In this document: one piece after another, positions 5,345-5,840 of the stretch
Layout of the letters: each line of letters starts with the position of its first letter
How positions within the stretch are numbered: the first letter of the stretch is position 1
Assembly: GCF_044324785.1 (NCBI RefSeq)
Contig: NZ_CP172127.1
DNA: 64,000 bases
Direction: 5' to 3' (one strand)
From: Escherichia coli
Lineage (GTDB): Bacteria > Pseudomonadota > Gammaproteobacteria > Enterobacterales > Enterobacteriaceae
Notes under the pieces: model-generated
Told to the model about the DNA's origin: nothing
The model's database searches: none
The model's input: the letters and a program-made list of their open reading frames with translations, nothing else
Position numbers and translations under genes: made by a program

Positions 5345-5840
5345 AAACGGCCAATAATCTTGGCGTTGACATAGCACGACGATCTCTTGAAACTACCGCG
5401 CCGATAGTTATTCCCCAATCAAGCAACAGTCCCCTGATTTGACAAACGGTCACATTAACAATATGCTGCCTTGCCCGGTGCAAAGCGTAGATATCCTGTT
5501 GTTCCGAGCTTTTTGGAGGCATGAACAGCATTGTCGGTTACATCAGAAGCACTGCGATGGCCTGTGCATCATTACCGTCATTTTTTGCCCACAGACAAAG
5601 GGAGTTACATACTGTGGGTTGAGGACCTTTACGTTATGCCCCAGTTTTTTAAATTCACTCTGCCAGTAAAATTCCCATGTGGATGCCCTACATCAATTAG
5701 GAAGGCCGGAATATTCGCCACTATTTGGAGTAATTCTTTTCGGCCAATACGTTTTGAATAAACCGGATTACCGACCTAATTTAACCCGCAGAGCTGAAAG
5801 ATATTTTTATCCAGATCAATACCTAGGAATACGATATTCA
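5345..5840 (-). pseudogene. IS110-family transposase N-terminal remnant, degenerate
   Basis: Minus-strand translation MNIVFLGIDLDKNIFQLCGLN...NDAVHASKKL...YLRFAPGK resembles the IS110-family N-terminal DEDD domain, with stops; cut off by the IS3-family IR at 5344. Confidence 0.4.

Follow-up and report, generated by a model that had tools for sequence, protein, structure and literature searches.

An interrupted ISKpn2-like copy of the IS110 family inside an IS3-family element of Escherichia coli

Among the insertion sequences of the IS1111 group, IS4321 and IS5075 target the terminal inverted repeats of Tn21-family transposons. According to the ISfinder convention, isoforms of an insertion sequence share roughly at least 95% amino-acid or at least 90% nucleotide identity. 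ISKpn2 is the NCBI/PGAP name for WP_032105377.1, which protein is encoded on K. pneumoniae plasmids; the literature that we found on ISKpn2, and likewise on the IS21-family element ISEc62, consisted of survey papers only. In IS1111-type elements the choice of the target is guided by an RNA of the 3' non-coding region (NCR), a mechanism shown to operate in IS1111 and IS110 relatives (Siddiquee et al., 2024; PMC11187229). ISEc11, ISKpn4, and ISPa11—IS1111-group elements with a 3' seekRNA—possess sub-terminal inverted repeats together with a long NCR downstream of tnp and insert without added bases, and short stretches of that NCR correspond to the target sequence spanning the insertion point; in the case of ISEc11, each strand is paired by one guide (PMC11187229). 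ISEc21, from the IS110 group, has an upstream NCR and targets the codons around the DDE's second D in certain IS3-family transposase genes (PMC11187229).

The window analyzed here is a 64,000-nucleotide stretch of the E. coli chromosome, from the contig NZ_CP172127.1. We are highly confident that its positions 5372-5911 represent the first third of a complete but dead ISKpn2-like copy, denoted IS110-x, which lies in an IS3-family element (IS3-c) and was later split by a miniature IS21-family unit (mini-IS21) and by an IS630. This copy has in common with ISKpn2 the length of ca. 1.3 kb, the layout of a 338-aa DEDD transposase, the left-end motif ATGG.ATGGA(C/G)TACC, the 225-nt 3' NCR, the absence of a target-site duplication (TSD), and the same insertion motif in the orfA of IS3-family elements (CTTCCAGTT^GTA, with the caret at the insertion point), but differs in being inactivated and interrupted and in a nucleotide identity of only about 82% over the element (81% over the coding sequence, CDS), which value, falling under the usual isoform level, indicates a distinct and older lineage than ISKpn2. 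Of the features listed for ISEc11, ISKpn4, and ISPa11, the sub-terminal inverted repeats, the long downstream NCR, the insertion without added bases, and the target-matching NCR segments recur here; in contrast to ISEc11, however, both target-matching segments have the sense of the top strand, and the target is a different one. As with ISEc21, insertion is specific for a conserved stretch of coding sequence in IS3-family elements, which preference leads to IS110-in-IS3 nesting; but whereas ISEc21 combines its upstream NCR with the catalytic codons of orfB, IS110-x has a downstream NCR and targets the end of the orfA helix-turn-helix (ATYY^NWK). Finally, like IS4321 and IS5075, the ISKpn2-like element lives inside other mobile elements, although the target differs and the sequence similarity is distant.

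Identity of the IS110-like pseudogene

The pseudogene lies on the minus strand, where the ATG at 5841-5839 opens the reading MNIVFLGIDLDKNIFQLCGLN up to a stop; the three-frame translation then runs on in other frames as ...EFYWQSEFKKLGHNVKVLNPQYVTPFV... and as ...KNDGNDAQAIAVLLM, a further stop, and PTMLFMPPKSSEQQDIYALHRARQHIV...CQIRGLLLDWGITIG.... The first-pass annotation had recognized by eye an IS110-family transposase N-terminus on this strand, on which assignment the Pfam, tblastn, blastn, and PGAP results all agree. The profile-HMM search proposed at that time gave a match of the in-window translation to PF01548 (DEDD_Tnp_IS110) with an E of 6.2e-7, though only after the frames had been stitched together across three 1-bp deletions and with a score barely over the gathering cut-off (29.8 versus 29 bits); the single-frame translation as first quoted matched nothing in Pfam, the gene having to be read across three frames. 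Similarly, among the peptides then quoted, MNIVFLGIDLDKN does stand in the true frame, but 'NDAVHASKK' and 'YLRFAPGK' were taken out of frame after 1-bp deletions, the true reading at those places being KNDGNDAQAIAV...PPKSSEQQDIYALHRARQ.

When an intact relative was compared with the window by tblastn, its amino acids 1-58 aligned at 71% identity (5841-5668) and its amino acids 76-196 at 55%, with an E of 1e-45, while blastn aligned IS110-x with the corresponding element of a Salmonella plasmid at 80.4% identity over 843 nt (E = 0). Moreover, PGAP had annotated the stretch equivalent to window 5370-5841 in the genome NZ_CP043033 as an 'IS110 family transposase; frameshifted; internal stop; incomplete' pseudogene. 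IS110-x still has the D of GIDL as well as the NDGND motif, and a frameshift disrupts the region around the catalytic E. The remnant is real, far beyond chance, and already annotated in RefSeq.

The intact relative, from the Salmonella plasmid NZ_CP030177 (locus L002), has an ORF of 338 aa; its score on the NCBIfam model NF033542 ('IS110 family RNA-guided transposase') is 343 bits, and in Pfam it matches both PF01548 (66 bits) and PF02371 (E 6e-24). Copies of that element with 97% identity on Klebsiella plasmids are annotated as 'IS110-like element ISKpn2 family transposase'; more distant relatives on plasmids include IS5708 (40%) and IS4321/IS5075 (36% amino-acid identity). The element measures 1308 bp, with a 66-bp 5' UTR, a 225-nt non-coding region after the stop codon, and sub-terminal inverted repeats that, by eye, match in 12 of 13 positions (left, ATGGACTACCTCC; right, GGAGATAGTCCAT), an arrangement that is the IS1111-subgroup layout as described (PMC11187229). 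The inverted repeats of IS110-x have become degenerate (ATGGAGTACCCCC versus TGAGGTAGTCAAT). From its DEDD transposase, sub-terminal inverted repeats, and 3' non-coding region of about 225 nt, IS110-x is best classed as an ISKpn2-like element of the IS110 family, IS1111 subgroup. It had been counted as the fourth IS110-family copy, and three others are indeed present in the window, at 3090-4427, 8887-9963, and about 24740-25790.

Extent of IS110-x and the elements that interrupt it

Positions 1-13100 of the window are 99.96% identical, in reverse orientation, to the locus L001 of NZ_CP043033 (window coordinate = 13101 minus L001 coordinate), so that the portion of IS110-x beyond window position 1—its last 694 bp, comprising the third piece and the 3' NCR—could be inferred from that genome. 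The stretch 5345-6100 is 100% identical to NZ_CP043033 and to some 57 other E. coli records, and no relative at 90-99% identity was found among 5,426 E. coli genomes; the locus is a vertically inherited fossil, common to about 57 E. coli records at an identity of at least 99%. Table 1 collects the features of the locus.

Table 1. Elements and element pieces of the nested locus, in window coordinates.
Feature	Coordinates	Strand	Remarks
IS630	1..1025	-	cut by the window start; 1153 bp in L001; inserted at CTAG with TA duplication; separates pieces 2 and 3 of IS110-x
IS110-x piece 2	1026..1096	-	codons ~161-184; includes second TSD copy (1093-1096); ends at the TA duplicated by IS630
mini-IS21 left terminus	1097..1124	+	TGTCAGCGCCAATGATATAAGACAGTAA; preceded by TSD TAGC 1093-1096
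IS3-b	1125..5344	+	perfect 26-bp inverted repeats 1125-1150 / 5319-5344; inside the mini-IS21 shell
IS3-a (second IS3-family element)	1218-2503	+	93 bp into IS3-b, 3-bp TSD; PGAP: frameshifted, internal stop
IS110-y (IS1111-type element)	3090-4427	-	inserted in IS3-b close to where orfA ends (position 679 in the numbering of the uninterrupted copy)
mini-IS21 right terminus	5345..5371	+	AAACGGCCAATAATCTTGGCGTTGACA; followed by TSD TAGC 5372-5375
IS110-x piece 1	5372..5911	-	left end and 5' UTR (5911-5842), transposase codons 1 to ~161
IS3-c (host of IS110-x)	5912..6635	+	distal orfA, orfB with 277-bp internal deletion, right end

The blastn matches to the Salmonella plasmid element are collinear: L002 2401-3239 corresponds to window 6199-5371 (80.4%); L002 3235-3305, which follows directly upon the L002 position 3239 aligned with window 5371, corresponds to window 1096-1027 (76% over 71 nt, E 3.8e-7); and L002 3308-4201 corresponds to L001 13232-14125 (85% over 897 nt). 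The third piece, as present in L001, aligns with amino acids 206-338 of the intact relative (78%, E 4e-64), in which relative the C-terminal domain is PF02371 (Transposase_20). The IS110 gene thus continues across the composite, where a continuation had been sought at 925..1124, and again beyond the IS630. On this collinearity, we interpret IS110-x as a full-length copy split three ways rather than as a truncated stump, the three joined pieces adding up to 1301 bp versus the 1308 bp of the reference, at 82% identity, which figure decomposes into 79% for the 5' UTR, 81% for the CDS, and 91% for the NCR plus right end. The first-pass limit of 5840 on one side had left out the non-coding left end, which reaches 5911.

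The differences between IS110-x and the reference affect 76 of the 330 comparable codons. In the window we located stops at codons 22 (5776-5778) and 102 (5538-5540), 1-bp deletions near 5688, 5587, and 1071, a 9-bp deletion near 5455, and a 4-bp insertion in the UTR at 5855-5858; outside it lie the stops at codons 200, 256, and 261, a fourth 1-bp deletion, and a 3-bp insertion. With five in-frame stops, four 1-bp deletions, and one 9-bp deletion no transposase can be made.

As to what separates the pieces, the 27-bp and 28-bp arms that flank IS3-b are 100% identical, respectively, to the right and left termini of ISEc62 in a tandem pair of that element on plasmid NZ_CP068153 (L007), and show the TG...CA ends (TGTCAGCG...CGTTGACA) together with a TSD of 4 bp, TAGC, a length within the 4-8-bp range of the IS21 family. 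On the minus strand the junctions read CGTCGT-GCTA-[unit]-GCTA-TTCTGCT, versus the uninterrupted CGCCGT-GCTA-TTCCTCT of L002; on the reference gene the two IS110-x pieces accordingly meet exactly, without any loss, the 4 bp GCTA being the sole duplication. Arms identical to the ISEc62 ends and an exact 4-bp duplication indicate that the IS110 gene received a miniature IS21 shell by transposition. Unlike ISEc62, the unit has no istA or istB between its arms, nor any internal repeats—the interior being the IS3-b composite—which absence marks the arms as a non-autonomous miniature derivative; in other genomes, empty versions measure about 51 bp. We had also considered the 26/27 bp outside the IS3-b repeats to be either an extension of those repeats or a REP-like palindromic target, which candidates were dropped when the joined 53 bp proved in BLAST to be the ends of tandem ISEc62 copies.

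The composite inside the shell, mapped against an uninterrupted IS3-b in strain S42 (L003), is IS3-b carrying two guests, IS3-a and IS110-y. The latter, whose transposase has 34% amino-acid identity to the ISKpn2-like one and whose sub-terminal inverted repeats are ATGGTCACCCCC/GGGGGTGACCAT, is the other IS110-family copy that had been placed, correctly, within the IS3-family element. The complementary proposal, that the IS3-family element had inserted into the present IS110 copy, holds as regards the nesting, but the direct insert is the mini-IS21 shell with the IS3 composite inside it. The locus is one nest, in which IS3-c contains IS110-x, which element is interrupted by the mini-IS21 (IS3-b with IS3-a and IS110-y) and by the IS630. 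As to the events, the IS110-x copy inserted into the orfA of IS3-c with no target duplication; the mini-IS21 entered IS110-x at about codon 161 with its 4-bp duplication, either already carrying or later receiving the IS3-b composite; and the IS630 inserted at a CTAG some 70 bp further on. The order of the later insertions we infer.

Two other accounts of the junctions have to be weighed, both of which we consider very improbable. In the first, as in the first-pass annotation, 5345 onward would be a truncated N-terminal stump of an IS110-family gene whose remainder had been lost, and the IS3-family element would have inserted so as to adjoin it without a gap at 5344/5345. It is true that 5344 is the last position of the IS3 inverted repeat, and that PGAP labels the pseudogene 'incomplete; missing C-terminus'; but the IS110 homology stops at 5372 instead of reaching that repeat, the intervening 5345-5371 are an IS21 terminus, the 4-bp TSD surrounds the IS21 termini, and the gene resumes at 1096-1026 and once more beyond the IS630 to complete an element of 1301 bp. 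According to the second account, the junctions 5371/5372 and 1096/1097 would be the chimeric scar of a recombination or deletion between separate IS copies; the region is dense in insertion sequences, and the 277-bp internal deletion in IS3-c demonstrates that rearrangements occur there, yet the IS110 pieces abut precisely with only the GCTA duplicated, and the arms pair up as the two ends, left and right, of a single IS21-type element, oriented correctly with respect to each other. A third notion, that the IS110 resemblance were a chance or low-complexity similarity of unrelated non-coding DNA, has a negligible probability, since, even if the first judgement of the similarity was visual and, of the three peptides quoted, two proved spurious, the nucleotide alignment to an intact element, the tblastn and Pfam matches, and the independent PGAP annotation all speak against it.

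The complete, dead, and twice-interrupted ISKpn2-like copy is thus the reading that we retain, and its practical value is one of annotation: PGAP splits the locus into three 'incomplete' transposase pseudogenes (window 5370-5841, L001 13228-13700, and L001 13925-14011) and leaves piece 2 and the IS21 arms unannotated. Otherwise the copy is a commonplace IS relic, one of an E. coli island and annotated before; its nesting is confirmed but routine, and the understanding of these families is left unchanged.

In 1,778 E. coli records a single place covers 80% or more of the 53 bp formed by joining the arms of the mini-IS21, and uninterrupted (empty) units of 47-51 bp are found in CFT073 downstream of papI (L005 2501-2551) and in O157:H7 (L006 2501-2547). 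The right end of IS3-b followed by the IS21 arm appears in about 510 records, and in the four loci that we checked the position of that junction was identical and at least four different right flanks accompanied the unit: the IS110 gene here, a PAI intergenic region, a site near perA, and an IS91 fragment. No target duplication was visible around the other mini-IS21::IS3-b units (L003, L010) or around the empty CFT073 copy, for which reason the mobility of the mini-IS21 rests on one clean TSD plus several different contexts. The mini-IS21, consisting of the outermost termini only, may be either a mobile shell whose cargo is an entire IS3-family element or a strict hot spot into which IS3-b inserts; as a shell, it would be moved in trans by an IstA/IstB of the ISEc62 type.

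At 10086-11901 the window additionally contains, on the minus strand, an IS21-family copy in which istA occupies 10628-11800 and istB, truncated, 10086-10628; the left end of this copy (11879-11901) differs from the mini-IS21 arm in 1 of 23 nt. This copy is a possible source of IstA for a movement of the shell in trans, its istB being truncated.

The host element and its target site

The remainder of IS3-c lies beyond IS110-x, outside the window; PGAP annotates the in-window portion as a pseudogene at 5912-6620. By blastn against an intact copy in a Salmonella Weltevreden plasmid (L008), the 277 bp missing from its orfB are L008 1208-1484. That intact host, an IS3-family element of about 1205 bp, provides the empty site, CTTCCAGTT^GTAGTAGG (also read as CTTCCAGTT^GTAGTAGGTGGCTTC), in the orfA codons ...EATYY^NWK.... 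In the occupied counterpart, the left end of IS110-x at 5911 abuts CTTCCAGTT, and the right end, in L001 and thus outside the window, where it is expected to read ...GGTAGTCAATAGAT, abuts GTAGTAAGTGGCTTC, which would be the 5' part of the IS3-c orfA. Within the conserved ...ATYY^NWK... segment the insertion point falls after the TAC codon and before the AAC codon, and a comparison of the empty and occupied sites reveals no duplicated bases (with an ambiguity of at most 1 nt).

ISKpn2-type elements sit in this motif in four different IS3 backgrounds, namely, the present one (window/L001), that of L002, one in Klebsiella (L009; TTCTTCCAGTT^GTAAAAAGTGGCC), and one in Providencia (L013; GATTTCCAATT^ATAATAAGTGGCG). 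The flanks differ among them, which points to independent, site-specific insertions; and the occurrence of relatives in the same motif of three other IS3 elements indicates an insertion that is site-specific and probably RNA-guided. The IS110-in-IS3 relation consequently reflects the target specificity of this lineage rather than a coincidence, for which specificity a published precedent exists, and the locus is an example of the build-up of site-specific IS110/IS1111 elements within other insertion sequences. In the window no unoccupied target of the ISKpn2 type was found within 3 mismatches.

A separate observation concerns isrN (Rfam RF01396), a Salmonella 'island-encoded' Hfq-binding sRNA, of which a full-length match occurs at window 6057-6199 on the minus strand (E 3e-31; 138 bits, with the gathering score at 44). 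It falls within IS3-c, antisense to the beginning of orfB, and 146 nt upstream of the left end of IS110-x. Since the IS3 element that hosts the Salmonella plasmid copy gives this match too, isrN seems to belong to an IS3-family element.

The 3' non-coding region and the choice of target

A 225-nt 3' NCR is present and, with the right end, conserved to a higher degree than the CDS (91% versus 81%). At about nt 100 it carries TCCAGTTGT(AG), which string equals the left flank plus the right flank of the insertion, and at about nt 163 ATAGATGTAA, which equals the tip of the right end plus the right flank; both have top-strand sense, and each NCR match of 9 nt or longer turns up in about 2% of shuffles. 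For a guide complementary to the target's top strand, neither L002 nor L001 offered an exact match of at least 6 nt. In the Rfam search (E up to 1) of the intact relative and the whole locus, no bridge-RNA or seekRNA family was detected, the sole match being the isrN within the IS3 host. RNAalifold returned for the three NCRs a stable consensus fold with one compensatory pair in 61 and almost no covariation, but those NCRs have diverged too little for the covariation to constitute a test of structure.

On these matches, the original insertion of IS110-x would have been directed by its own 3' non-coding RNA, a seekRNA or bridge RNA, of which the TCCAGUUGU segment is the candidate determinant of target choice; the ISKpn2-like NCR and the IS3 orfA would then form a candidate natural guide/target pair. 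The guide in the 3' NCR of the ISKpn2 lineage (UCCAGUUGU...) would recognize the conserved ATYY^NWK codons of orfA, which recognition, if true, lets the lineage invade many IS3 elements and accounts for the IS110-in-IS3 insertion observed here. Taking the two proposals jointly—the ISKpn2 lineage as an RNA-guided parasite of IS3-family elements and the 51-55-bp mini-IS21 as a mobile shell—we judge the chances for and against that combination to be evenly balanced.

Two sites permit a comparison. The Providencia target departs from the guide by G-to-A changes only, which would give G:T wobble pairs. In addition, the E. coli plasmid NZ_CP022155 (L014, 830-2200) carries an IS1111-type relative of 48% identity positioned precisely in the terminal inverted repeat of an IS903B (GGCTTTGTT^GAATAAATCG). 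The right end of this relative is ...CCATCTAT; by eye, the corresponding stretches of its 3' NCR contain CTTTGTTGA and ATCTATG, its site being GGCTTTGTT^GAATAA. Taken with the NCR matches above, these patterns fit a natural retargeting, though they do not amount to a proof.
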